Of a stretch of DNA of 64,000 nucleotides, positions 6,346 to 63,330 are shown in pieces. Position numbers and translations under genes: made by a program. Source of the DNA: Schmidtea polychroa (lineage: Eukaryota). A model generated the notes under the pieces. It was not told the origin of the DNA. It saw nothing but the letters and a program-made list of their open reading frames with translations, and did no database searches. The DNA is taken from positions 29,824,001 to 29,888,000 of the forward strand of contig CM097885.1 of assembly GCA_044892525.1 (NCBI GenBank), given 5' to 3'. Each line of letters opens with the position of its first letter. Position 1 is the stretch's first letter.

Positions 6346-8390
6346 TGTCGCTAATTCTTGATCCTGATGACCAAATATCCGAATCAGAGAAAAGTACAAT
6401 AAAGGCCAAAATGGATGAAATACTAAGGATGACTACACAGGATCAAGCCCCATTCAACAGAATATCAATTGACGAATACCCCAAACAAGATAACGATTAA
6501 GAAGTTTTTGCAAATGAGTAGTCAAACAAAAATTTGGAAGAAATGAAAGCTTGGGCCGCCACAACCAGTTATCCCTGTGGTAAACACACAAATTCAACAA
6601 TCGAAGAGGATGAAAACATCGCAAAGGAATCAGAAATACAGAAAATTCACGAAAAAACCAATAAATTAGAGTCTGGAATACTGATGATGATGAAATGGAT
6701 ACAAACTCTAACCAATGAAATAAAAACTCTATCGGAAAAATTGGACAAATCGCAAAATGGGAATGAATCAGACGGAGGAATTCAAAGGAAAAGCTATGCC
6801 AAAATTGCCAAAAAATCAAATACAAATTTAAATCTCAAAGAAAATAACAAAAATTTAAATTTTACGAATTATAAAAATTCAGAAAATCCAGAAAATCCAG
6901 ATAATAATTTAACTTTCAAAGAAAATAATGAAAATTTAAATTCTACGAATTATAAAAATCCAGAAAACCCAGAAAATTCTGATAATAATTTAATTTTCAA
7001 AGAAAATAATGAAAATTTAAATTCTACGAATTATAAAAATTCAGAAAATCCAGAAAATTTAAAAGATTTTAAAAATTTAAAAAATGGAAAATCAATTAAA
7101 AATTTTAAAACTCAGTATACCTACTCCAAACACCGTGGCCTATATCAAACCAACATGCGCCACGGACTTAATAGAAAATAATAAGGCTGGTCTCTACAGA
7201 AACATCCATATGGATACAATCGTGGGCTCTGATAGGGTCGTATGGCTGATCCATTGGAATCTCTGTCACTGGTCAATATACCTAGCGGATAAAGAAAATA
7301 GGGAGTCGGTAATCCTTGATCCTGATGACCAATTATCCGAATCAGAAAAAAACACAATAAAAGCCAAAATGGACGAAATTCTAAGAATGACCACACAAGA
7401 ATAACAATTGACGAATACCCCAAACTATGACTGTGGGGTGTTCGTACTCCAATACATATCCGACTTCCTATCCAGTGACAGAGGGATCAGATTTACGACC
7501 CCAAACTCAATGGAAATCAGAGAGCAAATTAAAAATATCTTAATGGAAAATATAGACAAATATGATAGCCTAGCCTCAATCAAGAAAAATGAGGCTATTG
7601 AGGCTATCATAACCAGCTTCCGCCTACACAAGACAAACATCGACCAATTCCTCAAATGGTTCACTGATTTATTCAATAAAGATCGAAAGCCACAAAGGAA
7701 TCATAGAGATAAAACATATACAATTACCAAATGCTCCTACCAGATACAGAGAATATTCACAGTGGCACCTGGTAGGGCTATCAAAGAGATAGACAGAATC
7801 CTGGAACCGGCTACCGATTTAACATCAGCGGTGATAGACACATACTTCGAAAGACCCACTCCTCCAAAAATGAGAGAAAAACCAGCACCCATTAAAAGTG
7901 CTCCGGAGTGGGAAACAAATAAACCAATAACCAGGGCAGACATCGATGAAGCAATAATAAACAGCAAAGATGCTGCACCTGGTATGGACCAAATCCCACT
8001 TCGACAATGGAGGGAGTGGATGGCATTTGATGCGCTAACACCAATCTTCAACAAAATCCTGGAGACGCATCAAATTCCCGAAGTATGGAGAAAATATTTA
8101 TTTGAATTAAAGAATGAGAATCGTCAATTAAGTTTGGAAATGAAAAACATGAAGAAAATGATGGAACAAAAGATAAAATCAATTGAAACTTTAGAACAAA
8201 TTATCAAAGACTCTGCCAAAATTTCTACAGAAAATAGAAAAACACAACCAAATTCAGATGAGATTGTGAAAATTCGAGAAAAAGAGCATTATTTAAACAA
8301 AGTGTGTGTTACACATTAATTGTATACAAGATTGTTATCACAAGATTGCTTGTTTTTATTAATAAATTTTTGACTCTGACACCTCATGCT
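6346..8390 (+). mobile_element. Mosaic NeSL-like non-LTR retrotransposon remnant (ORF1, Ulp1 and pre-RT pieces), with antisense-28S segments at 6543-6583 and 8375-8390
   Basis: CHWSIY/DCGVF Ulp1 motifs and APGMDQI pre-RT motif; segments match 33680-33911 and 34564-34910; TAA at 7402; AATAAA at 8361. Confidence 0.82.
6836..7062 (+). repeat. 81-bp (27-aa) coding tandem repeat, ~2.8 copies, in ORF1 (also at ~37738-37964)
   Basis: KENN.NLN.TNYKN.ENPEN.DNNL.F is repeated. Confidence 0.85.
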
Positions 8391-20478: not shown

Positions 20479-20580
20479 AGTAGTAGGATGTGGGCTCCCC
20501 CGGCCAGGAGCTCCCCCGGCCACATATACCCCCTCCCCCCCCCCCCCGGGAAAAAATTTTTTTTTTAATTTTTTGTTTTA

Positions 20581-21130
20581 ATTAATTGGCCGGGCGGGCT
20601 CACACTTTTTTTCATCCCAAAAATTAATGTTCCTGCCAACAGATTTTATTGACCGATACCTCATCTTAAAGCTCAGTCCAAGACCTTTCGAATGAGCTAT
20701 AGGTATCATATATATCTTTAATAGTTTTAATGTTATTAACAATTGATGACCACCATCTTTTCAACGTTAAATTATTATTATTTTCCAAAATATTATTAAT
20801 TGGCCGGGCGGGCTCACACTTTTTTTCATCCCAAAAATTAATGTTCCTGCCAACAGATTTTATTGACCTATACCTCATCTTAAAGCTCAGTCCAAGACCT
20901 TTCGAAAGAGCTATAGGTATCATATATATCTTTAATAGTTTTAATGTTATTAACAATTGATGACCACCATCTTTTCAACGTTAAATTATTATTATTTTCC
21001 AAAATATTATTAATTGGCCGGGCGGGCTCCTACTTTTTTTCATCCCAAAGATAAATGTTCCCGCCAACATATTATATTGATCGATAGCTTATTTTAAAGC
21101 TCAGTCCAAGACCTTTCTAATGAGATATAG
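20581..21130. repeat. 214-bp subterminal tandem repeat, ~2.5 copies (also at ~51444-51993)
   Basis: TGGCCGGGCGGGCTC at 20587, 20801 and 21015. Confidence 0.92.
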
Positions 21131-21143
21131 ATTTTTATCATAC

Positions 21144-21580
21144 GATGACTCATCACATTTTTAGAACAAAGACAATGACTCATCACATTTTTAGAATGAT
21201 GTCTAATATTTTAGAATGATGCCTAATATTTTTAGAATGATTACGTCACATTTTTAGAATGATGCCTCTTATTTTTAGAATGATTACGTCATATTTTTAG
21301 AATGATGCCTAATATTTTTAGAACGATTACGTCATACTTTTAGAACGATGCCAAATATTTTTAGAATGATTACGTCATACTTTTAGAACGATGCCTAATA
21401 TTTTTAGAACGATGCCTAATATTTTTAGAACGATGTCTATTATTTTTAGAATGATTAGTCATACTTTTAGAACGATGTCTATTATTTTTAGAATGATTAC
21501 GTCATACTTTTAGAACGATGCCTAATATTTTTAGAATGATTACATCATAATTTTAGAACGATGCCTAATATTTTTAGAAT
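21144..21580. repeat. ~20-23-bp minisatellite (TTTTAGAAYGAT...); the copy at 52007-52380 is 63 bp shorter
   Basis: About 20 units of ttttagaatgattacgtcatac / ttttagaacgatgcctaatat. Confidence 0.9.
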
Positions 21581-21720
21581 TAATAATTTTGTTTTAATTA
21601 TCGATGATTATATAATTTTGTTTAAATCATTGATTATATAATTTTTTTTTGTTTTAATTATCGAATACGTAATAATATAATTTTGTTTAAATCGTTGATT
21701 ACATATTATTATTTTCTAAG

Positions 21721-22815
<1,095 letters not shown>

Positions 22816-23297
22816 GTTGCAAATATTAGTTAAAAAGATAAATTATTTCTACACACATACACAACCCATTAACCATTATTATTATCATTATTAGTGAAAA
22901 CCTCAAATATTTTTTACACACACACACAACCCATTAACAATTATTATTATCACTATTAGTGAAAACCTAAAATATTTTTACACACTAAGTTATGGGGTAG
23001 AGAATTATTATATGTTTGCAGTATTCTGTGTTTGCCTTTACAGGAAGTTGTCAATATGGAGCGATAATTTTATACATACATTCTATATACACATACCTTG
23101 TTTAACATGGGTGTATATACTCCTAGTCTATCCGACAAGATATTCTGTCCCCCTATGGGTAATGCTCACAAGGGTACTACTCACATTCAACATATCGCAA
23201 GGGTATATTAATTAAGGTTAGTAAATAAAACCTATCACACACACTATTTAAACGATAAAAATCAAGACAAGAGAGGACAAGGCAAAGTGTATGCATT

Positions 23298-23520
23298 TAG
23301 TATTGCCAGGCCTAATGAGCAGTGATCAAATATCTGTGCCTGAAAGACACGGTGGATATTTGTTCGCGTCCACAAGGGTCGTCTGTGCCTCCCCCAAGTG
23401 GGGTCAGAAGAACCTGGGCATTATAGCTTTCCGTACGGAACATTACGCCTAGCATGGGTAGTCAACTACCAGCACATTCGAAACGTATAATTTCAAAATA
23501 CATGCGTCATTGGCACTATA
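23298..23520. ncRNA. Candidate structured RNA (multi-hairpin, GC-richer island); copy at ~54149-54371
   Basis: Four to five hand-folded hairpins inside a closing stem; no ORF. Confidence 0.4.
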
Positions 23521-26503
23521 ACCAAATTAATTAATGTTTTCACTAACACAAATATATATTTACAGAGGCCTCCCACTAGTTGGATTACAACCGCCCACCA
23601 CGACGATCAGCTTGTAAATATATATTAATTAAGGGATAAAGAGGACCCACCCAACCCTATTATATTTAATTTACAAATTTTTCTCGCTCTTCTGCTGGTA
23701 TTCTATCTCAAAATTATCATCTCCATCGGGCCATTTGGAATACATCTTGCGAATTGGACATATTTCTTAGTTTCTGATGTGGCGTCAACTATCATTGCTA
23801 AAATTTATATTGATTTAAAAGCAATTAACTTACATTATCTAGCATTTTATCGTCACAGGCTTGATAAATTAGGCAACTGTTATTTGTGGTATACTTTTTC
23901 AATGTCATTTCCCACCATAAAACACAGATACCTAAATATAATATATATATTTTAAAGAATTAATTCATGTCTTACATTAATAATAATATTCTTCAGGTAG
24001 TACTTTACAATATCTAATTGCTAAAACATCGGTTTTCCCATTTTTCTTGACAATCGTTGAAAGTTTACATAATTTAAGTCTGATAATTCATGTTGAAGGA
24101 CACCCACAATCAGCTAATTCATTTAAGAAATCCGGAACATAGCAATGTTTCACCATTTTGTCTGGTTCATTTTTTTCTATAATTCATGTTTTAATAAGAA
24201 ATTTCTAAATCCAGAACATAAGTCATTTAGTGTTTCACCATTTTATCTGGTTCATCTTCTTCATAATCATATAATTCATTTTCTTCATTACTAAGTAAAA
24301 TAATTAAAATATTGTAGTAAATTCTTTATTTACTTACTTTATGGATACTAAAACGAAAGAAATAAAGTTATATCAAAAGTATATTTAAATAATTTAAATT
24401 TAAATAATTTAATTTAGTTATTTAAAAATATTTAAACAATTTAGTTATTTAAGCATATTTAAACATTAACATTATTATATAGTATAATTTTATATAATAT
24501 TATAATTTTATGTACACTTATATATCCTTCATTTAATTTTTTAAATTCAAAATTTATAATGAAGATTCTTTGAATTAAAAAATATTCTGTTAGTATTTCC
24601 AGGCAGTAAACAACGAATTCAATAATTAAAATCTTAATTTTCATGTTGTTAGGGTTGTGGCCAGAAGTTAATCGCCATCTAATCGTTTGTTCTCAATTTA
24701 GCTCATTTTTGTTCAAAACATTCAGGTGAGTTGTTATCTGGAAAGTTTCTTTGAGCTCAGTTTTGTTAAAACACTCACGGTATTTTTGAGGGACGTGTCA
24801 CTGGAAATAAATTAACAATGGGTAGTCATACATACATGTTGTTGGTTTGAACTGTTGATTTATTTTAGAAATATGTATATTAAAAACATTTAAGGTATCA
24901 TTCAGTAAAATAATATAGTATTTTTGAGTATTTTTAGTTGATTTATAAATAACAGTATTTTGATATATCAATAAAGACCATATACTCCTAGTTTATCCGA
25001 CAAAATATTCTGTCCCCCTATGGGTATTGCTAGCAAGGGTACTGGTCACACTCAACATGTCGCAATATTAATCATTTAGAAATTCTTAGGTAATTTAGTG
25101 AGATGATCGTGAATATTTTAAATGTAACTTTACACTTATGTCGAGCGACTAATTTATTGGTTAACTTTTTAGACATTTAAAGCAAAAGGTAATTTATTCA
25201 TCTAATGTTCGTTACAATAGATAATAATATGAGAAAAACATGGTCATTATTCATTGATAATTTTAAATTCTTTATCATTTAGAGTAAATTTGTTTGAGGC
25301 AAAAATAATTAAAGGAGTCATAATAGAAATATGGTTATCATTTATCCAATTAAGGGGCTTATTAGTTAGAAATATAAAGTAACAATTCTTTTCTAATTTA
25401 ATTAGATGATCATTAGACGTAGTATATCTTTGCGAGAAATTTAAGATGTTTGAGTAACCAAAACAATGATATTTTGGATCATCAATTTATGAATATTGGT
25501 TAATTTTGTTATTTTTAGTCATTTAAAATAATATTTAGCAAAGGTAATTTAGCAAAATATCATTTATCCATCCGATAATAATATTCCTTCAATAGATTTT
25601 ACCTTTAATATTCAACCGATTTAATTTCTAGAAATCTAATTAAAATCATAAAATTCCTTCAATAAAGTTAAATTTTCTTTAGCCGTTGTCGATTTCCAAC
25701 TTTTAAGTCAATATTTCTCAAGTTTTGTCACTGATGTTCCCACAATGAATAAAATAACTTCTTAAGTAAATAATTTAAAGCAATAACCTTTGATATCAAT
25801 CCCAATTAATTCTAAAGATTTCAAATATTTCATTGTGAAAACCAAGTAAATTGATCATTAACCCTAAACGACTTAATAAAACAATGGATAATTAATATAA
25901 AACTGGTTCTAAAACATAAATCTAAATTACTGTGCAATAACATTCATCACAACCTAATAAACCTCTAAAACGATATAATTTCACAGGAACTATTATTAAT
26001 TCATAGCTAAATACTGACTATTTCCCTTTAAAATTTTACCAATAAGAACATTGTCGATTTAAATAGAGATTTCAAACATTTCCACCTTAACCGATCCCTC
26101 ACCAAATATTTCTATCATTTTAAACACCTTAAAAATCGTATATTACCATCTTAACCAACCGACTTTAATATATCAGACCTTTAATATATCAATTCTCTTA
26201 AAATCCATAGAAAATTCTTCAAAATATGAATTTTATTTATTTGTTACAGACATCCGTCCATTGAAATAATTTAGTATCTAAATTCATGTAGTAAGAGCCC
26301 ATTAAAAAAATCAAAATTCACTAAAATCAATATTTTCTACAAATATTTCACCACATTTACCATCAAATACCTAACTAGAAATGAAATATATTGATTGATC
26401 ATAATTCTTCATCGATTCAGCTAATTATATAGCAATTATAACGTGATATATCTTTCAAAATCACAAATTTCAGTATATTTTACAATAATTTTTACAAAAA
26501 TTA

Positions 26504-26540
<37 letters not shown>

Positions 26541-26573
26541 TAATAATAATAATATTAATAATATTAATAATAA

Positions 26574-26640
<67 letters not shown>

Positions 26641-26670
26641 AACAACAACAAAGGATACAAAATACATTTA

Positions 26671-27054
26671 TTAATCATCAAATTTTTTATACAACAACCA
26701 AGCTAAACAATGTTGACCGCATGTTTGTGTCAAGGGATTTTGAAACATTGTTTTATTATATACAATAGGTTTCCCCATTGTTTGTAGTTTTGATACCAAC
26801 AAAGCAGGGTAATAGAAACCCATAGGATCGAACACGAATATATTACTAGGTTTCACATATATAGCAATCCAATGTTCTCCACCAAGATGAGACGATTGAG
26901 TATTGACGATTATGGCTTGATTATTGCTCAAATATGGGATTTTATCGAGAGGAAAAACTCCTACAAATTCATTTCCCAATATCTGTTTTCCAATTCTATT
27001 GACCTGAACAGAACTACTTTAATAAATTAAACAGTATTGAAAAACTTACTCCAT
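26671..27054 (-). CDS. Polinton cysteine protease (copy 2; intron 27017-27049)
   Basis: Identical to copy 1. Confidence 0.85.
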
Positions 27055-27082
27055 GACAACTTTTTGGTGTTTCTGTATACAT

Positions 27083-28306
27083 TTATACTAGCACGGTTCT
27101 ATTTGCAGTAATTTGAACTTCATTTTCAAATACTCCATATATTATAACATGTACTGGTTCAGTAATGGCCTTTGCAAACTTTATATCCAGTCGTAAATTC
27201 CCGTTTTGTGGTAATTGACTCTGATTTAAATCAAAATCGGGAGCTAGAACAAATGTGAAAAATGGGTATTTGCTTTTAAATTCTTCAAGAGTTATTCCGC
27301 AATTCAAGTTTTTATCTAAATAACCCAGATTTCTAACAATACTCTGCATATATGTCGCACAGTAATTATCATTCTCGAAATCTTGAGTATATGTTTCTCT
27401 ATAATCAGTATTTTTCGATAAAGTCAATGAAGTAACACCAAAATTTTTGAAAATTGAGCTGGAAGCAGTATACGATCCATTATATTGCGTTTCACTTTGA
27501 AATGTTACCAGAATAAAATTAGGCATTCTTCTGTCACCAAATATTTGTTCTTTATAGAATGATGAAGCACCTTTAGCAATAGCAAATTGTACAATTTCCT
27601 TTGTTTTTAAAGGATAAATTGCATGTTTTGAATTAAGCCCCAATTGATGACCAGCTAATACTGACGGGTCTACTCGAACTCTTCTCACCAATAATTTTGC
27701 ATCAACTAATTGACATATTGGTGCACCAGTTGCACTAGTAAGAGACAATGCAGAATCAGATCTTTTCAGTCTAATATGTATATTAACTCCCGGTAGTAAA
27801 TATTTCGGTTGATCCATAAAATCAAGTTGTAATGATGAGCACATAGTGAATACTTTTGAGCCTTTAACCCACTTTTTTCTTTCATCATCTGCTGCTGCAT
27901 AACCCATAGGTGTAAGACAGGTATTTTTAGTATCTGAATTGTAATTTAAAATAGTTTCTATCAAAGCCTTGTGAATGAATGTATTATTTCCACCCTCAAT
28001 CTTGATATTATTAAATCCCAACACTGCATCTTTAAACAGAGTATGAAACATGAAATTGTTTGGTAATACATCCGCATTGGCATCCAAAACCTTTCTATCT
28101 TTATCTACAACCTTGATCTGAACAGTCAATAAAGTATCGTTCAAATCTAAATATTCAGTTTGCGAACCATTAATATAAAACTCGATATCATTTCTACTAT
28201 CAGTAATTGAATTCATAGGAAAAACTTCCTCAAAGGCACCAAATTCTATTACTGCCTGGGGCGACGGTCTATCAAATATACATAATTCGGATTTACCACA
28301 AATCAT
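27083..28306 (-). CDS. Polinton major capsid protein (copy 2)
   Basis: Same protein as 1841-3064. Confidence 0.88.
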   Translation of the reverse strand: MICGKSELCIFDRPSPQAVIEFGAFEEVFPMNSITDSRNDIEFYINGSQTEYLDLNDTLLTVQIKVVDKDRKVLDANADVLPNNFMFHTLFKDAVLGFNNIKIEGGNNTFIHKALIETILNYNSDTKNTCLTPMGYAAADDERKKWVKGSKVFTMCSSLQLDFMDQPKYLLPGVNIHIRLKRSDSALSLTSATGAPICQLVDAKLLVRRVRVDPSVLAGHQLGLNSKHAIYPLKTKEIVQFAIAKGASSFYKEQIFGDRRMPNFILVTFQSETQYNGSYTASSSIFKNFGVTSLTLSKNTDYRETYTQDFENDNYCATYMQSIVRNLGYLDKNLNCGITLEEFKSKYPFFTFVLAPDFDLNQSQLPQNGNLRLDIKFAKAITEPVHVIIYGVFENEVQITANRTVLV

Positions 28307-28665
28307 TTTGCAAATATAGTTCCATGTCCTTTCATTCGTTTGTTTATACGCGATATTCCATGCCCTTTACGTTTTGGAGCTGGGACTGGAGGTGTATCTT
28401 TTTGAAACATACCAGCAACTCCAGGTAGAACCTTCCCTAACTCAGCTAAAGCATTTGTTTTTAGGGATGGTAATATTTTCTGTTCATTAATAATCACATC
28501 TTTTGCAGTTTTCATGCCAAAACTACCAATACGTTTAAGAATGGGAAGTGCAAATCTCCCTATTGTTTTTAACCAACCTGATCCATACTGTTTACCAATA
28601 AAATATGGTAATTCACCACCAGATTGGCTATCACTATACATACTAATAATATCGGAATTAGCCAT
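28303..28665 (-). CDS. Small basic virion/core protein (copy 2)
   Basis: Identical to 3061-3423. Confidence 0.7.
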   Translation of the reverse strand: MANSDIISMYSDSQSGGELPYFIGKQYGSGWLKTIGRFALPILKRIGSFGMKTAKDVIINEQKILPSLKTNALAELGKVLPGVAGMFQKDTPPVPAPKRKGHGISRINKRMKGHGTIFAK

Positions 28666-29711
28666 CTACTTTACGAAAATGTAGTGTCAAATGAGTTTTT
28701 GAGTCTTTTGGGAAGTTTATAAGTTTTCCACTATCGTCACGAATATTTATTTCTATATTGTTTATACATGAGCTTGAAATTGGTAAATACATGGGATTAT
28801 CTATATTTATATTGACAACTTCATCATGTTCATATTTTCCAATCCACACCGATTTCAATAGAGGAACACTGGAATCACCAACTATTATAGGCTCAATAAT
28901 ATTAGTATATATGAACATTTGTTGATGATGTTCAAGTATTCTTGGTTTACGTATACCAGCCGATTTTTCCCGATATTGCTGCTTCTCTAATCCAAGTGTA
29001 TTTGTCAAATTTTTCGCAAATGTCATCATTCAAACTGAAGGTAAATAACAAATCTTTCACAATATCCAAACTTTTAAATATGTGTGAACAATTATACTTT
29101 AAATATTTAAGTAACACATCAAGTTTATCAATATATAATTCGTCAGCGAAGGTGAATGATTCTTCAACTTCATTATTATACGACACTGAAATTTTGATTT
29201 CTTCTCTCATTACACTGTTTGCTTCAAATAGATCAAAGCGTAATAAATATTCTGTTTCCATAACTTCATTTTTCAACTTATTGCAACCCATTCGTCTGGC
29301 ATCTTCAATATAATCGAATGTTATTGTAAATGGTTTAAAATCACAACTGATATTTAATCCATCCTTGTAAAACATAGTGCAATGCTGATCTAATATTTGA
29401 TTCGGAATATGATATGTTTTATCATAATTACTGATAATAAAGATACCACTACATGTTTTCATAGCATTCCTTTTGAAATCAATCTTACATTGACTATAAA
29501 ATGGGAATGTATTGTACACGAATGTAAAATCTTGCAGTGCAACTTCCCAGTCACCATTTAAAGAAATCGGATTCTGGAGATTGACCATGAATTTACTGGC
29601 TTGATTATCTGAATAAATAAGCGGGCAACTATTGCTTGGTAAAATAGTATAAAAATTCACTTTACTAGGTCCTTTTCTGATATCCATGATGGGTTTTGAT
29701 AACCATGCCAT
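28658..29711 (-). pseudogene. Frameshifted minor capsid protein (copy 2)
   Basis: Same split as copy 1. Confidence 0.8.
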
Positions 29712-30712
29712 TTGACATAGTATTGTTTATCCTTGCCTTTATTTTTAGTTTTCAAAATCTTCTGAATTCTAAATACTTTTGGGGGAGGAATAACTTGTAA
29801 TTCCTGCTCATAAAATTTTCCTTGTACAATATTGTTATCATTGTCTTTGATGACATACATTACAGGATTCTGTTTAGTATTTATTTTTGAAATTACAAAG
29901 ACTTCATCACTCCAATTCGTATCAAAATTTTTAATAAATGGTGATGCACTAATTTTACTAATTCTAACATGGTCACCTACTTTATATTTCGGTTTTGTAA
30001 CTTTTTCAGATTTTTTAGAATAGATTGTTTTTGACGTGATATCAGTCGGCCTTAATCCATTCAGTCCTTGATGTGATGAGTGATTATAACTGGTTATTAT
30101 TTTTGGTAAAACCAATACCCATTTTTTATTACCTTGATGCACGAATAATTTCTTTAATCTATCTCTCAAAGTTCGGTTAAATCTTTCAACATGAGCAGCT
30201 TTGTATTGAGAATGTACTGAGTAATGGTTTATTTTCAATTTATTGAGGATTTGCTTGACTTTACTGTTGTAGAATTCTTTACCTAAAATAATAATAATAA
30301 TAATAAAAATAATAATATTAATACCTAAATCAGTTTGCAAGTTTTTAGGATGTCCATCTTTAAATAAATGATTAACAGCTTTGGACATTTCATCTGCAGA
30401 TTTTGCCTTGACGGGTATTGCTCGGGCAAACCGACTGAATACATTAATACATGTTAAAATATATTTATACCCATTGTTAATTTTCGAATAGGGTATCATC
30501 TCCATCAAATCCATTTGCCATAAATCATTTATTCCATATGTTTTATATGCTCTTGTTGGGAATCGTTTCTGCATTGGTTTGTTCAAACTGTACGCAAGCT
30601 GGTCTGATAACCACTTCTGAGTTTCCTTTTTCGAATTCGGAACTCTTTTCCTTAATTTTGCCACTCCACCAAAACCGGCTTCGTCTTCCGGGTTCGTCCA
30701 AATCTTCTCCAT
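29657..30712 (-). CDS. Chromo-integrase (copy 2; intron 30283-30324; D->N in IDVFSR)
   Basis: As copy 1, with a substitution at 30445. Confidence 0.9.
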   Translation of the reverse strand: MEKIWTNPEDEAGFGGVAKLRKRVPNSKKETQKWLSDQLAYSLNKPMQKRFPTRAYKTYGINDLWQMDLMEMIPYSKINNGYKYILTCINVFSRFARAIPVKAKSADEMSKAVNHLFKDGHPKNLQTDLGINIIIFIIIIIILGKEFYNSKVKQILNKLKINHYSVHSQYKAAHVERFNRTLRDRLKKLFVHQGNKKWVLVLPKIITSYNHSSHQGLNGLRPTDITSKTIYSKKSEKVTKPKYKVGDHVRISKISASPFIKNFDTNWSDEVFVISKINTKQNPVMYVIKDNDNNIVQGKFYEQELQVIPPPKVFRIQKILKTKNKGKDKQYYVKWHGYQNPSWISEKDLVK

Positions 30713-30773
30713 TACAACAAGAAGATTTAATATTAAATTTAATGTCTGGTAATGAAGGATTAGCACCCATTGT

Positions 30774-31262
30774 TTATGATCGACTTCCTATTGTTCCACC
30801 TAATAATGATATTGCTAAAGGTATCAATGCACCGATAAATCCCCCTTGTTGTTTATATATAATTTTTCTCATTTGTTGACGATTTTTATTATTTACTAAT
30901 GATAGCAAAGGTTTCCTATATTTACTCAATAATTGCTTTTTAGATTTACTGATTTTAATCTTGCCTTTGACTACTTTAAGTATAATATCGAGTAAATCAT
31001 CGACAACATAATTTGGAAATGATTGCAAAATACTGTTTCTTTTCATACTTGGTGCCTTTAACAATGTATTGAAAAACGGGAAACTCCGATGATTTTTAAC
31101 AACTTTTACTTTCTTAGTGGTTTTACTTTTAGGTTTAGGATTTTTCGAAATAAGATTCATTGCAGGAAAATTTTCTGTAATAAGATCTTTAGATGGAGTA
31201 TAACTAGTTGTTGGTGGAACTTTTGTTTGTTTTTTACCCGATATCCTTGTTTTTGAAAACAT
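30774..31262 (-). CDS. pX-like basic protein (copy 2)
   Basis: Two amino-acid differences from copy 1. Confidence 0.72.
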   Translation of the reverse strand: MFSKTRISGKKQTKVPPTTSYTPSKDLITENFPAMNLISKNPKPKSKTTKKVKVVKNHRSFPFFNTLLKAPSMKRNSILQSFPNYVVDDLLDIILKVVKGKIKISKSKKQLLSKYRKPLLSLVNNKNRQQMRKIIYKQQGGFIGALIPLAISLLGGTIGSRS

Positions 31263-31275
31263 GATTTATATGTTT

Positions 31276-31914
31276 TCAACTTTGTTTTGAACTTTGTTTA
31301 TATACCATGGCACCTTTTGGGTTGAAAATATCTGTTTTTACCCGTATATCATCAGGGCATTGTTGTGTGAAATCGAGAAATATATACCCATGCGGTATTT
31401 TCGTGGCATCTTGAAATGCACTGATAAGAAAATTACGGTTATTAGGGTATGCTTGTCGTCCAAGAAAATCAATGACAGTTGCATCTCTAGGATTCTTGAA
31501 AATAACTAAATATTGTACATTTAAATTACGTGTTCGATGTGCACCACCTTGATGAAATAGATTTTGTGTTATGAAAATAACTGTTACACCAACATGTCTG
31601 CTGATTTTTGTGAATAAATTATTAAAGTCCTTTTCTTTATTGGCTTCTTGATACAAATCATCGATAATGATGACATCATCTTTCTTCAAACGACTTGACC
31701 AGTTTTTATCAAAGCCCTTTACTATTTTCATGTTTTTCAACTGACAGAAACTTGATTGCGTCAATCCGTGTTCTTCGTCGGCGCCCCTATGCCAATAAAT
31801 ATTGTTGAATTTTGTTTTAAACAAATTTGATTTTAGTAATTTACAAACAAATAAAGTTTTCCCGCTACCACTTGGACCAACGATTTGGTATACTGCATCA
31901 TTTCGTAATTCCAT
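31276..31914 (-). CDS. Polinton genome-packaging ATPase (A32/FtsK-HerA family)
   Basis: Walker A GPSGSGKT, Walker B IIIDDL, SRH, ITQNLF, FKNPRD and PHGYIFLD motifs. Confidence 0.93.
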   Translation of the reverse strand: MELRNDAVYQIVGPSGSGKTLFVCKLLKSNLFKTKFNNIYWHRGADEEHGLTQSSFCQLKNMKIVKGFDKNWSSRLKKDDVIIIDDLYQEANKEKDFNNLFTKISRHVGVTVIFITQNLFHQGGAHRTRNLNVQYLVIFKNPRDATVIDFLGRQAYPNNRNFLISAFQDATKIPHGYIFLDFTQQCPDDIRVKTDIFNPKGAMVYKQSSKQS

Positions 31915-32018
31915 TTTTTAAATTTAAACTATATAATTATTGTTTATATTGATAATTTAAATGAACTCTGTTTTTAAATACCTATATATATCAAAGTTTT
32001 TAAAATTATTTCATTAAA

Positions 32019-32483
32019 ATGCTTTCAAATATAAATTACAGGGCAAAAACTGATGTATCAAAAATGGTATTTCCAATAGGGAAACCACAACAACTTATCA
32101 ATAGAAGTAATAAATATCCAATAATATATTTCAAAACTGGTAAATGTAGAATTATGGGGTGTAAGGAAATAATCAAAGCTAGTGAATATAATGTTTATGA
32201 TTTAGAAATACAATCGATAACCGTAACTTCCGATATAGGTTTTTCTTGTAATTTAAATAAATTAGCTAAATTAATACCATGCTTTTATGAACCAGAATTA
32301 TTTCCAGCTTTGAGATATATAAAATATAACCCTATGTGTGTAAATATATTCGCTAGTGGTAAGATAGTAATTCTTGGAATAAAAAATATTGATTACAAAT
32401 GTATAGTTGATAATATCATATCTGAAATTAAATCAATAATTGAAGGAAAAGAATTTTTAGATTTTTTATTATCACTTAATTAA
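32019..32483 (+). CDS. TATA-binding-protein-like protein (minimal TBP fold)
   Basis: IIYFKTGKCRIMG (repeat 1); LNKLA...YEPELFPALRY...VNIFASGKIVILG (repeat 2). Confidence 0.85.
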   Translation: MLSNINYRAKTDVSKMVFPIGKPQQLINRSNKYPIIYFKTGKCRIMGCKEIIKASEYNVYDLEIQSITVTSDIGFSCNLNKLAKLIPCFYEPELFPALRYIKYNPMCVNIFASGKIVILGIKNIDYKCIVDNIISEIKSIIEGKEFLDFLLSLN

Positions 32484-32591
32484 TTATTTATCATTCAATT
32501 AAAACAAAAACATACTGCAATCTGATTGGATGATAAACAATAGTCATAGGTATAAAAACCCTGTACCATTTCATTTTAATCATAATTCACA

Positions 32592-33011
32592 ATGACCAAG
32601 AAAATTTCAAGCACTGAAAAACCAAAAGTAGTTCCAGAACTTGTACAACCTGTTCAAATGTTCCACAACTACAAAATGTATTTTTTAAAAGAAGAAATCA
32701 ATATGAAATTGGTGTCACCGATCAAGCTAATTCCTACCCAATTTCAATTCTTAACCGGCACGCTTTCAATGTTAGATATTAAAACCATAGATGATGTTTT
32801 CAAAAGGTTGAATACGAATCTATCATGCAATCAATATGCATTTTTCAACAACCGATATGCAAAATTTTATGATTCCTTTGATGAAATCAGTTTCAAAGAA
32901 AACGAAAATTGGTATATAACAATTACAATCCAAGGATATAAAGTTGATAATAATGATGTGTATTCTCCAATTTGGAAAATTATGTCTGCTAGACTTTCAC
33001 AGTTATTTTAA
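32592..33011 (+). CDS. Hypothetical Polinton protein, possibly an OB-fold ssDNA-binding protein
   Basis: Clean 139-aa ORF; TATAAAA at 32550; AATAAA downstream. C-terminal beta pattern ITIQGY...PIWKI. Confidence 0.6.
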   Translation: MTKKISSTEKPKVVPELVQPVQMFHNYKMYFLKEEINMKLVSPIKLIPTQFQFLTGTLSMLDIKTIDDVFKRLNTNLSCNQYAFFNNRYAKFYDSFDEISFKENENWYITITIQGYKVDNNDVYSPIWKIMSARLSQLF

Positions 33012-33107
33012 TGTTGTATTTAATAAATGTATTTAGTCATATTTGTTTTCGCTTATATTCTATATTTTCTATAAACAAATATATACTATAGTTTTAAAAT
33101 ACTAATA

Positions 33108-33457
33108 ATGACTACAGAAAAAGGTTAATATGATTAGTTAATTATCGAATTATTTAATATTTAGAATTTATAATAAACTTTTTATTGGAAAAGTTAGCAG
33201 AAATATCTGGTGTGAAAATTGAGGACATATTATCTGTTACAAACGCATTAAATATCGGCTGGGTAGCAGAGAGTGAAGATTCGGAATTTGATGAAACAGA
33301 TGAAGAAAACACTCAAGATGATGAGGAAAGCATTCAAGAAATTGATGAACCTATGGAGGAATTTACGGATACTGAACCGTGTGTATATAGGGATTGTATA
33401 GATCATGTTGTTGAAAATGTTATGAACTGTGGAGATGATGAATGTGAATGTGGATAA
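33108..33457 (+). CDS. Acidic hypothetical protein, spliced (41-nt intron at 33124-33164)
   Basis: ATG ACT ACA GAA AAA G|gt...ag|AA TTT joins in frame to ORF 33185-33457 (MTTEKEFIINFLLEKLAE...). Confidence 0.65.
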
Positions 33458-36400
33458 CACGAGTAAGAGAAAAATTTTTTAGACGACCATCTGAAATAGT
33501 CCAAAAAATTAGACTAAGTATTTTGGCTAGTGTACAAATGCTACTGCAAAAACATTTTCAAAAAATGTGGTAATGAAGAGATTTTGACAATTGGAGGAGA
33601 TGAAATTCAGATTGCAGATCTTACAAAGTCAGAAATCAGCCAAAACAAACCAGATAATCAGAATACTTCAACAATTTCTGAATTAAAGAATGAGAATCGT
33701 CAATTACGTTTGGAAATGAAAAACATGAAGAAAATGATGGAACAAATGATAAAATCAATTGAAACTTTAGAACAAATTATCAAAGACTCTGCCAAAATTT
33801 CTACAGAAAATAGAAAAACACAACCAAATTCAGATCAGATTGTGAAAATTCGAGAAAAAGAGCATTATTTAAACAAAGTGTGTGTTACACATTAATTGTA
33901 TACAAGATTGTAGATGCAGTCATTGAGGAACCAGTCCAAGATACTGTGGACCTGCCAATACCAATAGAGCCCACAGTTGTCGAAGAACCACAGATAACCA
34001 CAAACAACGAAAATATAGAAATTAGTGAAACAGATAGAGATTTGGTAGAGAAACACACAACACCTGCACCAACATCAGTCAGCAAATCAAAACAACAACC
34101 AAAAAATATCCGGTCCAAGAGCATAAAGAAAAGAAGACAAGTGGATGACACCGAATACCAAGAAAACACAAAGGATAACAAAAAAATACGTACCGGTGGA
34201 GGACCGTCAACGGCAAATACTCCACTGACCAATCTTATTATACCAAATATGAAAATCAACGATGAACTAAAAATCCAATGCAATTGCAAAAAAAATAGAT
34301 ACTCGTACTCAACAGATACCAATGCCACCAAACACTTCAAAGAGTTACATCCACAATCCGGAGATCCAATAATAGAGTGCGGAATATGCAAAGCCATCAT
34401 CACTATCAATGAAGCAATAGAACATATAGCAGTCCATAGAGAGAACAATACAAAAGAAAGGAACATACAGCAGCCCGCAATCAAACCAACAGAGGAGGAC
34501 ATCCCTACGGAGACCAGCTGACTATCACAGACAGCGATAGAATATTACATAAAATTTCTATCGCTCAGTATACCTACTCCAAACACCGTGGCCTATATCA
34601 AACCAACATGTGCCACGGACCTGATAGAGAATAATAAGGCTGGTCTCTACAGTAACATCCATTTGGATACAATCGTGGGCTCTGATAGGGTCGTATGGCT
34701 GATCCATTGGAAACTCTGTCACTGGTCAATATACCTAGCGGACAAAGAAAATAGGGAGTCGGTAATTCTTGATACTGATGACCAAATATCCGAATCAGAG
34801 AAAAGTACAATAAAGGCCAAAATGGATGAAATACTAAGGATGACTACACAGGATCAAGCCCCATTCAACAGAATATCAATTGACGAATACCCCAAACAAG
34901 ATAACGATTATGATTGTGGAGTGTTCGTTCTTCAATATATAATGGACTTCTTAGAAAATCCAGAGAGACCCTTATTCAATATGCCTGATTCAGATAAAAT
35001 AAGAACACAAATTACAACGAGCATACTAGAAGATATCAAAAAATACAAAAAATGCAACAATGAAACAAAGAATGAAGACATAGAAGACGCCATAAATCAA
35101 TTTAGACTACACCAATTATCAATAAATGACATACTTAATTGGTTCAAGAACAGATTCCTAAAAGATCAAAAGCCGAGAAGAGCATGCAGAAACGAAAATA
35201 AAAAACCCAAGCTATGCTCATACCAAATACAGAGATTATATACAATAAACTCGGGCAAAGCAATAATACAAATTCACAATGAAACATGCAAAGTTATTGA
35301 CCTAACATCAACGGCAATGGACCTGCATTTTATAAGAACAAAGCCTCCAAAGATACAAAATATGATTAATATTACGGATAAAAGACCAGAATGGGAATCA
35401 TCAAAGCCATTTACAGAGAAAGATGTATCCATTGGAATAAAAAACAGCAAAGATGCAGCACCAGGAGAGGATGGAATTCCAATAAGAGCATGGAAAGAAT
35501 GGATGCCTGAAGACCCATTAACTCCAATATTCAACAAAATAATAGAATCCAAAAACATCCCAGATTCATGGAAAACTTATGTTACAAAGTTAATTAAAAA
35601 ACTAGGCAAAAGTAACCAAGCACACAATCCGGCAAATTGGAGACCAATAGCATTAATGCCCACAAGTTATAGAATTTTTATGAAAATCCTTAACAAAAGA
35701 ATTCTCCAATGGATCCACGAACACAGGTTAATTTCGAAATGGCAAAAGGCAGTGAATATATCCAATGGGTGTGATGAACATAATTACATCATCACTGTTC
35801 AAAAAGAAAAGCCCAACAGAAAAAGATACAAAGGATGTGAATGCCACCTAGTGTTCTTGGATCTTGCGGATGCCTTCGGCAGCATTCCACACGAAGTGAT
35901 CTGGCATACTTTAGAACAGAAAGGCCTAAATAAAAACACCATAAGCCTATTGCAAGAATGCTATAAAGACTGTCACACTATATATCAAAGTGGTGACACC
36001 AGATCAAGCCAAATCAAACAAGTAAAAGGTGTTAGACAAGGATGCCCACTATCAATGACCATCTTCAGCCTCTGTATTGAATATCTAATACAAGCTGCAA
36101 TAAATAGTGGGAAAGGAGTCGAGATCGCTGGAGAGAAAATAAGCATTTTAGCATATGCGGACGATCTCGTTCTTATGGCACCACAACACTATCAAATCCA
36201 AGAAATGCTCAACATAATAGTGGAACAAGCAAAGATGGCTCACCTTATATTTAAACCCGAAAAGTGTGGTTACTACCTAAATAAAAAAGATGCTATTGGA
36301 TGGGAAAACAACATCTTTCTCGACGGAACAAAGATCAAACATATAAATGAGGAAAATCTTTACACTTACCTTGGTGTCACAGTTGGTAGCACAAAGAAAA

Positions 36401-37081
36401 ACGATCTAAATCAAATTTTCAAAGAAGTTGAAGACAAAGCAATCAGCATTTTCAGATCTTCGTTGAGGGCTCACCAGAAAATCGAGGCATATAACATCTT
36501 TTGCCATTCAAAATTCATATTCATCTTGCAAGCCGAAGAAATAGCTAAAAGCGAAGCTGGAAAATTTGATGACAAAATTAGAATGCTAATAAAGGATAAA
36601 GAGGTGCTTGACCTACAACATAAAAGCCCTCTAATGGACGCAATTTTTTACTCCCCGACCGAAAAAGGAGGCATTGGTATTACAAAGATAGTAGACGAAC
36701 AGATCATACAAACAATTTCTCGTTTCCTAAAGTTGATAAACAGCAGTCATTCGGCAATAGTAAACATATTAACGGAAGAATTAATAGATGTAGCCGAAAC
36801 AAGAACCGATTCCCCCATCAACTCATTGTCAGATTCGTTAAAATGGTTAGATGAAACATATGCCCATAAAAGAACAAATTCGGCAAAAAAATCATGGTTA
36901 GATAGAGTAAAGAATGCAATAACTCAATTATACAACGATCATGATATCAAATTGACTTTCCTATCACGAAATATTGGCACTGGATGTAACATCAAATCCT
37001 ACAATCAAGAAAAACCTGAGGAAGTCTTTCCTCCATTCTTAGACGAAGCCTCAAAAAAGCTACACAAAATGATCAGAGAAG
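33453..37081 (+). mobile_element. NeSL/R5-like non-LTR retrotransposon, 3'-truncated (no RLE endonuclease)
   Basis: Coiled-coil ORF1 piece, C2H2 fingers, Ulp1 protease and RT in that order. Confidence 0.9.
33880..34521 (+). CDS. Retrotransposon ORF1 C-terminal part with two C2H2-like zinc fingers
   Basis: CNC...HFKELH and CGIC...HIAVH; in frame with the downstream ORF across a single TGA. Confidence 0.75.
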   Translation: MCYTLIVYKIVDAVIEEPVQDTVDLPIPIEPTVVEEPQITTNNENIEISETDRDLVEKHTTPAPTSVSKSKQQPKNIRSKSIKKRRQVDDTEYQENTKDNKKIRTGGGPSTANTPLTNLIIPNMKINDELKIQCNCKKNRYSYSTDTNATKHFKELHPQSGDPIIECGICKAIITINEAIEHIAVHRENNTKERNIQQPAIKPTEEDIPTETS

Positions 37082-37125
37082 GCCTATATCAAACCAACAT
37101 GTGCCACGGACCTGATAGAGAATAA
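34522..37125 (+). CDS. Ulp1-like (C48) cysteine protease plus non-LTR reverse transcriptase, truncated at ~37081
   Basis: HW..D..Q...DCG protease triad; RT motifs WRPIAL, FLDLADAFGSIPH, GVRQGCPLS, YADD and YLGV. Confidence 0.93.
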   Translation, partial: LSQTAIEYYIKFLSLSIPTPNTVAYIKPTCATDLIENNKAGLYSNIHLDTIVGSDRVVWLIHWKLCHWSIYLADKENRESVILDTDDQISESEKSTIKAKMDEILRMTTQDQAPFNRISIDEYPKQDNDYDCGVFVLQYIMDFLENPERPLFNMPDSDKIRTQITTSILEDIKKYKKCNNETKNEDIEDAINQFRLHQLSINDILNWFKNRFLKDQKPRRACRNENKKPKLCSYQIQRLYTINSGKAIIQIHNETCKVIDLTSTAMDLHFIRTKPPKIQNMINITDKRPEWESSKPFTEKDVSIGIKNSKDAAPGEDGIPIRAWKEWMPEDPLTPIFNKIIESKNIPDSWKTYVTKLIKKLGKSNQAHNPANWRPIALMPTSYRIFMKILNKRILQWIHEHRLISKWQKAVNISNGCDEHNYIITVQKEKPNRKRYKGCECHLVFLDLADAFGSIPHEVIWHTLEQKGLNKNTISLLQECYKDCHTIYQSGDTRSSQIKQVKGVRQGCPLSMTIFSLCIEYLIQAAINSGKGVEIAGEKISILAYADDLVLMAPQHYQIQEMLNIIVEQAKMAHLIFKPEKCGYYLNKKDAIGWENNIFLDGTKIKHINEENLYTYLGVTVGSTKKNDLNQIFKEVEDKAISIFRSSLRAHQKIEAYNIFCHSKFIFILQAEEIAKSEAGKFDDKIRMLIKDKEVLDLQHKSPLMDAIFYSPTEKGGIGITKIVDEQIIQTISRFLKLINSSHSAIVNILTEELIDVAETRTDSPINSLSDSLKWLDETYAHKRTNSAKKSWLDRVKNAITQLYNDHDIKLTFLSRNIGTGCNIKSYNQEKPEEVFPPFLDEASKKLHKMIREGLYQTNMCHGPDRE

Positions 37126-62865: not shown

Positions 62866-63330
62866 ATGCTTTCAAATATAAATTACAGGGCAAAAACTGA
62901 TGTATCAAAAATGGTATTTCCAATAGGGAAACCACAACAACTTATCAATAGAAGTAATAAATATCCAATAATATATTTCAAAACTGGTAAATGTAGAATT
63001 ATGGGGTGTAAGGAAATAATCAAAGCTAGTGAATATAATGTTTATGATTTAGAAATACAATCGATAACCGTAACTTCCGATATAGGTTTTTCTTGTAATT
63101 TAAATAAATTAGCTAAATTAATACCATGCTTTTATGAACCAGAATTATTTCCAGCTTTGAGATATATAAAATATAACCCTATGTGTGTAAATATATTCGC
63201 TAGTGGTAAGATAGTAATTCTTGGAATAAAAAATATTGATTACAAATGTATAGTTGATAATATCATATCTGAAATTAAATCAATAATTGAAGGAAAAGAA
63301 TTTTTAGATTTTTTATTATCACTTAATTAA
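62866..63330 (+). CDS. TBP-like protein (second copy)
   Basis: Identical to 32019-32483. Confidence 0.85.
   Translation: MLSNINYRAKTDVSKMVFPIGKPQQLINRSNKYPIIYFKTGKCRIMGCKEIIKASEYNVYDLEIQSITVTSDIGFSCNLNKLAKLIPCFYEPELFPALRYIKYNPMCVNIFASGKIVILGIKNIDYKCIVDNIISEIKSIIEGKEFLDFLLSLN

Follow-up and report, generated by a model that had tools for sequence, protein, structure and literature searches.

A minimal TATA-binding protein encoded by Polintons as a probable late-gene switch acting through an ATAAAC box and host TFIIB

The window, that is, the whole 64,000-nucleotide stretch of Schmidtea polychroa DNA analyzed here, carries a Polinton that encodes a 154-aa protein with the TATA-binding protein (TBP) fold. 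Sequence comparisons indicated that this TBP-like gene is a fixed gene of the Polinton family in this host and of a wide clade of metagenome Polintons. We reasoned that the Polinton-encoded minimal TBP probably acts as a late-gene switch, working through an ATAAAC box and host TFIIB. It is an open question whether Polintons of animals have remained viruses whose life cycle is regulated, and the analysis bears on it.

A TBP-like gene of Polintons

The features of the Polinton copy are listed below in window coordinates.

20479..33452, Polinton copy; left TIR from AGTAGT at 20479, right end lost at a non-LTR (Ulp1-RT) junction
23114..23205, subterminal repeat, also at 21771, 22093 and 24980; in inverted orientation at both ends of full copies
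26692..27012, minus strand, adenain-type protease; a query homologue matches Peptidase_C5 (32.2 bits)
27083..28306, minus strand, major capsid protein, 407 aa (Atlas 0.98)
28303..28665, minus strand, basic ORF, 120 aa (p120)
28658..29711, minus strand, probable minor capsid gene, here split into 254-aa and 123-aa ORFs; identity from synteny only
29657..30712, minus strand, rve integrase with chromodomain
30283..30324, minus strand, in-frame AT-rich GT..AG insert of 42 nt in the integrase, likely a mini-intron
30774..31262, minus strand, p162, a conserved virion-module ORF
31276..31914, minus strand, packaging ATPase, A32-type, 212 aa (Pox_A32 31.2 bits, cut-off 22.8)
31983..31991, plus strand, TATATATAT, canonical-type TATA before the TBP-like gene; putative host-driven early promoter
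32011..32015, plus strand, TCATT initiator-like site, its A 30 nt from where the TATA begins
32019..32483, plus strand, TBP-like ORF, 154 aa; N-lobe without helices H1/H2, C-lobe intact, TFIIB stirrup YEPELF
32525..32529, plus strand, CCAAT-like ATTGG upstream of p139
32551..32558, plus strand, TATAAAAA upstream of p139
32592..33011, plus strand, p139, likely a T7 gp2.5/Enc34-type ssDNA-binding protein (SSB)
62866..63330, plus strand, second copy of the TBP-like ORF in a tandem duplicate, 0 nt differences

The original prediction had described an intact TBP ORF with both repeats, the first of them shortened, and no N-terminal extension, and this description holds. The reading frame is uninterrupted and carries the motifs FKTGKCRIMG and YEPELFPALRY...IFASGKIVILG; it matches Pfam PF00352 at 56.4 bits (cut-off 22.9), and TBPs made up 35 of its 36 PDB sequence matches. 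The AlphaFold (AF2) model, based on a 79-row alignment, has a pLDDT of 96 and proved a strong match to the TBP fold: Foldseek gave 44 matches at E≤0.001 (best E 4e-9), all matches listed being TBP chains, and the VIA structure comparison aligned 141 of the 154 residues at Z 12.6 and rmsd 2.5, with an identity of ∼27 to 32% to cellular TBPs and the first non-TBP at Z 6.3. Since Pfam, AlphaFold, Foldseek, and VIA agree, both TBP lobes are present in this small protein. The shortened first repeat and the missing extension were seen both in the model and in alignments.

The window copy has no pPolB and retains only its left TIR. Positions 6347 to 33153 and 37249 to 64000 form a ∼31-kb tandem duplication of 99% identity, which joins the Polinton, Ulp1-RT non-LTR pieces, and a ∼2.17-kb satellite and accounts for the identical second TBP-like ORF; a third, truncated module also lies in the window. 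Elsewhere in the genome, a natural full-length copy of 16.9 kb has AGTAGT termini and a 6-bp TSD and encodes a 1,348-aa pPolB, the protease, major capsid protein, p120, probable minor capsid protein, integrase, p162, ATPase, TBP-like protein, and p139. The TSDs of two natural copies are TATATA and GTCATG, the minor capsid gene of other copies is a single 355-aa ORF, and PF03175 (pPolB) matches are present in the host genome. The element thus has the hallmarks of a Polinton/Maverick (adintovirus; Polintoviricetes), namely AGTAGT TIRs, a 6-bp TSD, pPolB, rve integrase, A32 ATPase, adenain-type protease, and capsid genes, the minor one recognized by synteny. Assignment to the Alpha or Beta PolB group was dropped as inconsistent.

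Among the individual gene products, the major capsid protein has a double jelly-roll, with PF21738 on 65%, as one of its top three Atlas clusters, and its profile found no match among PDB sequences. The top four VIA rows of p139 are ASFV CP312R, DUF2815, Enc34 SSB, and T7 gp2.5 at middling Z scores (6.4 to 7.2), and Atlas returned no usable match for it. We take p162 to resemble adintovirus pX-bearing proteins. The protease gene near 27012 to 27085 and several SSB relatives look intron bearing. Two palindromic Polinton copies (C1:179562801-179592800 and C1:4152724-4182723) have a mirrored structural module with a TBP-like gene on each side, and positions 34822 to 37125 (plus strand) of the window contain an ORF of a non-LTR retrotransposon that encodes an Ulp1 protease and a reverse transcriptase.

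The TBP-like gene recurs throughout the host genome. An exact 32-nt stretch of it occurs 649 times, and all 150 matches listed encode the identical protein. Diverged host Polinton families (43 to 97% identity by tblastn) carry the gene as well: it was found in 20/20 ATPase-selected and 6/7 PolB-selected host regions, the seventh consisting of PolB pieces only, and no TBP-less Polinton family was found among these regions. A word search yielded 97 relatives, most of 144 to 180 aa, and the best 150 rows of a profile search were almost all of the short TBP-like type. After six distant loci (L115 to L120) were left out of 80 metagenome loci, 38 of the remaining 74 had a core Polinton gene and 58 had any element gene; on contigs of at least 4 kb, a core Polinton gene was present in 19 of 22. 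INPHARED contained no relatives; in IMG/VR, a single distant TBP from a large virus was found, and neither the ATPase nor the capsid had relatives there.

Polinton TBPs are graded in size, from ∼150 aa through a 167-aa form with N-lobe helix segments to full-length forms of 172 to 177 aa, whose genes neighbor integrase or capsid genes. The short forms make up one clade (100/99) in a 43-row tree, and the full-length Polinton TBPs join this clade (96/96, long branches). Three Polinton-type contigs (L117, L118, and L221) carry the less reduced full-length type; in L117, the TBP gene lies beside a Pfam PC4 coactivator gene, and L118 has a similar ORF. The dN/dS values against the window gene ranged from 0.18 to 0.37 in 24 of 28 pairs, the other four being saturated, and these sequence comparisons indicate that the gene is under purifying selection.

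If the gene were a processed copy that the element had recently taken from host TBP and carried as a passenger, it would also be intronless, as it is. The tree and the AU test refuted that origin, since grouping with host TBP was rejected (P = 7e-15), and the low identity to cellular TBPs, the separate clade, purifying selection, and occurrence in every ATPase-selected host locus likewise speak against it, leaving it a negligible chance. The original prediction of a captured, highly diverged TBP-fold factor is borne out by the fold match, the sister copies, and the separate clade insofar as the protein is element encoded; capture particular to this element is not, the gene being old and clade-wide.

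The ATAAAC box before structural genes

The TBP-like gene and the structural module are arranged head to head. The divergent layout over an AT-rich spacer of about 100 bp, as originally predicted, measured 104 nt (31915 to 32018) with TATATATAT within it, and the adjoining neighbor is the packaging ATPase, followed by p162, integrase, minor capsid, and major capsid genes. The following ATAAAC boxes were located in the window.

31941..31948, minus strand, TATAAACA box, putative late promoter; the ATPase ATG lies 33 nt after the start of ATAAAC
31296..31301, minus strand, box 39 nt ahead of p162, in Tyr-Lys-Gln codons at the 3′ end of the ATPase
30851..30856 and 30772..30777, minus strand, two boxes before a short ORF and the integrase
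29725..29730, minus strand, box of the minor capsid gene
28715..28720 and 28760..28765, minus strand, boxes upstream of the 120-aa basic ORF
28342..28347, minus strand, box of the major capsid gene, in Ile-Asn codons of the preceding gene

Counts were made in an upstream window of −70 to −8 after removal of near-duplicate upstreams (75% cut). A sense-strand (T/C)ATAAAC(A) preceded the ATPase by about 35 nt in 24/24 elements, against 1.64 expected from dinucleotide shuffles (maximum of 6 in 300), and in 21 of them it fell at −30 to −40. It was also found before the major capsid gene (11/14), integrase (7/14), minor capsid gene (6/10), p162 (2/3), PLA2 (7/8), and a 154- to 161-aa ORF family (8/11), and was less regular before p120 (2/8), the protease (3/6), and pPolB (1/4). 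SSB genes had it in 3/12 cases, that of the window included, and TBP genes in 2/46 (1.56 expected by dinucleotide shuffles). The reverse complement occurred 0 times in all structural classes, and ATAAAC was the top hexamer in an unbiased count. Where the box falls inside coding sequence, it occurs in two reading frames and is held at the codon level: Ile-Asn is written ATA AAC in 50/90 cases within the last 110 nt of genes versus 22/271 elsewhere. The 154- to 161-aa ORF family (e.g., L046:9591-10055 and L081:5870-6355) is conserved, often beside the protease or TBP gene, and has no Pfam match; a "DEDD" label for it was discarded as lacking Pfam support.

The TBP genes have a promoter type of their own, with TATAWA in 23/46 versus 10 expected and a TCA(T/C) site 30 to 32 nt further on; the TCATT call in the window follows the Inr consensus. 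Some TBP-like genes of L072, L077, L090, and L093 to L095 are TATA-less, and this group shares TTTGTTTTA ∼45 to 55 nt before the ATG.

Given the strand specificity and locked position of the box, we regard as very unlikely two readings of ATAAACA in which TBP has no part, namely a forkhead-type site of the host and a poly(A) signal serving the gene upstream. The word does fit the forkhead consensus RYAAAYA and is frequently located close to the 3′ end of the gene before it, but GTAAAC was present in just 3/81 upstream windows versus 63/81 for ATAAAC, and the window's ATPase has no same-strand gene upstream. Only 3/73 sites have A as the base before the box, which is therefore not AATAAA.

The spacer TATATA and the repeat at 23114 to 23205 had been put forward as targets of the TBP-like protein. 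Both gave way to the ATAAAC box at 31941 to 31948, on the opposite strand, as the candidate target; the repeat was rejected as the main target, as it is not conserved across elements and was not found in the related metagenome elements. The same lack of conservation weighs against a role outside transcription, in which the protein would serve protein-primed replication or integration by bending the DNA of the termini or of the subterminal repeats. The TBP-like gene often adjoins an SSB-like gene and the subterminal repeats begin with TATATA, as such a role might have it, but a TFIIB stirrup would then be unnecessary, and we see only a slim chance for this explanation.

As a control, 15 Polinton-type loci were chosen by ATPase alone from MAG contigs and scored at −100 to −8. 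The box preceded 9/11 structural genes in the 2 loci with a short TBP and 0/34 genes in the 13 loci in which no short TBP was seen. The missing TBP gene is not proven in these loci, since they are partial contigs (1.5 to 14 kb); their GC content is higher (0.38 to 0.56 in those shown), the assignment of some start codons is uncertain, and the L224 row, listed as an "integrase," looks retrotransposon derived. The ATPase of L212 has its box further out than −70. Of 92 other ORFs in host stretches, 1 had the box. Of the contigs with full-length TBP, L118 has 5 ATAAAC versus 1.2 expected and L221 has 0. Because the box is absent in relatives without the protein, the TBP-like protein is likely a built-in Pol II switch for late genes. 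A single branch of the ATPase tree (99/97, flagged for long branches) separates all 26 short-TBP elements from the rest, and box and gene may therefore represent a single shared inheritance rather than repeated coevolution. The contigs L212 to L226 are 15 prokaryotic MAG contigs with eukaryotic Polinton-type ATPases, probably through binning contamination.

Anatomy of the minimal TBP and a proposed mechanism

Residue numbers below are those of yeast TBP, mapped via an animal TBP alignment and the VIA range, and the contact list was taken from Table 1 of PMC12529657. Conservation refers to 202 family rows; N69 and V71 were assigned from a separate alignment, since the automatic 202-row alignment was shifted by two residues there. 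The N-lobe has lost 9 and 15 residues (N69-F116 spacing of 34 versus 43 and G125-N159 spacing of 19 versus 34), and the model has no helix of at least 4 residues before residue 79. Thus, the canonical helices H1/H2 and the basic regulator-binding patch are absent, whereas the 167-aa relatives retain both helix segments. In TBP, the available text of PMC7221094 describes this patch as the binding surface for TFIIA, TAF1, Brf1/2, and Mot1.

The family retains N69, F116, F190, P191, F207, and the stirrup residues E186, E188, and L189. Three of the four intercalating phenylalanines are therefore kept, the F116, F190, and F207 equivalents at 99 to 100%, while the F99 position is K or P, a loss that could weaken DNA bending. 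The DNA-binding face is changed at V122 (to R, 99%), T124 (to M, 99%), L205 (to N, 100%), V203 (to C, 82%), I194 (to R, 80%), and V71 (to N, 82%), and N159 is near-fixed as S or T. I194, V203, and L205 are the altered-specificity residues of TBPm3, according to the text available from PMC1636458.

These substitutions bear on whether host TBP/TFIID or a paralogue reads the box as a weak TATA variant, the element TBP being a general booster without specificity of its own. We think this unlikely. TATAAAC is one base away from the normal TATAAAA, the title of the solved structure 1qn3 names Arabidopsis TBP in complex with a TATA variant, C(−25), and the host genome has at least six TBP-family loci; a literature search on TATAAAC and Hoogsteen found no paper. 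On the other side, the base preceding ATAAAC is C, G, or A in 29/73 sites, the DNA-face substitutions are near-invariant, and the box is missing from the promoter class of the TBP gene itself. In addition, the TBP N-lobe reads the 3′ half of the box, where C is disfavored (PMC1636458, in the text available).

The TFIIB-binding glutamates E91 and E93 (E186 and E188) are kept in 94% and 99% of the 202 relatives, and no TFIIB homologue was found in the Polinton loci examined. As far as the text available from PMC7221094 goes, the two stirrup glutamates contact TFIIB and vary among viral TBPs, which keep the first at ∼40% and belong to viruses mostly encoding their own TFIIB. A complex of the TBP-like protein and a TFIIB core, which shares 92% identity with a host exon, was modeled and scored 0.52, and the best of three controls scored 0.00. 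The mark for this score is reached by 51/78 solved and 2/108 mismatched pairs, and scores of ≤0.60 comprise 5/78 solved pairs and all 4 passing mismatches. At least 84% of the contacts agreed between runs, with pLDDT of at least 84; TBP-TFIIB complexes have already been solved, and the predictor may have memorized them. The prediction weakly favors TFIIB binding.

The retained stirrup, the lost regulatory surface, and this weak complex prediction could serve a decoy that titrates TFIIB of the host or sits on its TATA boxes, damping host transcription, with the box belonging to another factor. Such a TBP decoy had been one of the roles first suggested; it is now less favored because the DNA face is near-invariant, and a TFIIB sponge would need no conserved, retooled DNA face. 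It also leaves the box and its link to the short-TBP clade unexplained, and we hold it to be quite improbable. The distribution of the box lends specific, though indirect, support to the other suggested role, in which host Pol II would be redirected to promoters of the element.

In the late-gene switch that we propose, host TBP/TFIID would start the TBP-like and SSB genes early from ordinary TATA and initiator promoters. The small TBP would then bind ATAAAC, a sequence disfavored by host TBP, and, once on DNA, would recruit host TFIIB and Pol II; it would escape Mot1/TAF1-type control, because the N-lobe docking surface is gone. Packaging and capsid genes would thereby be expressed late. The fuller claim, that an animal Polinton clade runs an early-to-late program with one ∼150-aa TBP respecified for (T/C)ATAAAC(A) and using host TFIIB, has in our judgment an even chance of being right. 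If true, this would be the smallest TBP-type factor and an independent counterpart, in one protein, of the late complex that herpesviruses build from six, as well as a compact natural orthogonal TBP-promoter pair. A dedicated capsid and packaging promoter class with its own factor makes a regulated Polinton life cycle testable, and the natural ∼175-, 167-, and 150-aa forms distinguish dispensable parts of TBP (the N-lobe helices) from the indispensable TFIIB stirrup.

Comparison with known systems

The closest parallel is herpesvirus vTBP (KSHV ORF24, EBV BcRF1, and CMV UL87), also a virus-encoded TBP fold with polar changes at V122, L205, and neighboring positions (PMC12529657, Table 1). Its TATT late promoter, like the Polinton box known from sequence, is a TATA variant before structural genes; it is used with host Pol II, as proposed for the Polinton box. 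The available text of PMC12529657 describes ORF24 as a protein of ∼750 aa with all four phenylalanines and without the TFIIB glutamates, predicted to clash with TFIIB and acting in a six-protein complex. The Polinton TBP, in contrast, has ∼150 aa, has lost F99 and the N-lobe helices, and retains the stirrup; no genes for partners were seen. It is a 154-aa single domain lacking the Pol II-binding N-domain and CTD expected of an ORF24/UL87 homologue, and herpesvirus rows in a BFVD search appeared only at E 5e-3 or weaker. By analogy, it is best read as a one-protein late-promoter factor, like herpesvirus vTBP but with host TFIIB.

With cellular TBP/TRF (PF00352), the Polinton TBP shares the two-lobed saddle, the C-lobe stirrup EPELF, F116/F190/F207, and N69; it differs in lacking the N-terminal extension, N-lobe helices, and F99, in its N159 to S, V122 to R, and L205 to N changes, and in forming a separate clade. 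Among described Polintons and Mavericks, we found no description of a fixed TBP-like gene with a shared promoter-like box. The literature search on Polintons with TBP, with Repbase and most subscription papers outside its scope, returned only Starrett et al. (2021; PMC8502044) and its preprint. The available part of that paper has a "TBP" key in the legend of its Fig. 5, for a non-animal MELD virus with adintovirus-like PolB; this is a single legend entry without family, structure, or promoter analysis, and the text of its Fig. S2, with the animal adintovirus maps, contains no TBP. Nor did TBP turn up in term searches of the text available from a preprint on a PLV framework (2026), a paper on a coral polintovirus, and a review of giant transposons.

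TBPs of Nucleocytoviricota and mirusviruses share the virus-borne TBP fold (BFVD matches; L119 to L121). They differ in that such viruses mostly have a viral TFIIB and a diverged stirrup (PMC7221094, in the text available), and the L119 large-virus TBP falls outside the Polinton TBP clade. The large-virus contigs L119 to L121 encode a 182-aa TBP between two genes. These flanking genes presumably encode DNA polymerase and ribonucleotide reductase.

In the host genome, 13 listed loci at C3 ∼38.2 to 39.1 Mb and C1 ∼23.8 to 24.2 Mb (L233 and L234) have frames of 301 to 310 codons matching the TFIIB family. Two further host loci we take to be BRF1-like. The two of the 13 TFIIB-family loci that were read are intronless, divergent 301-aa TFIIB paralogues.
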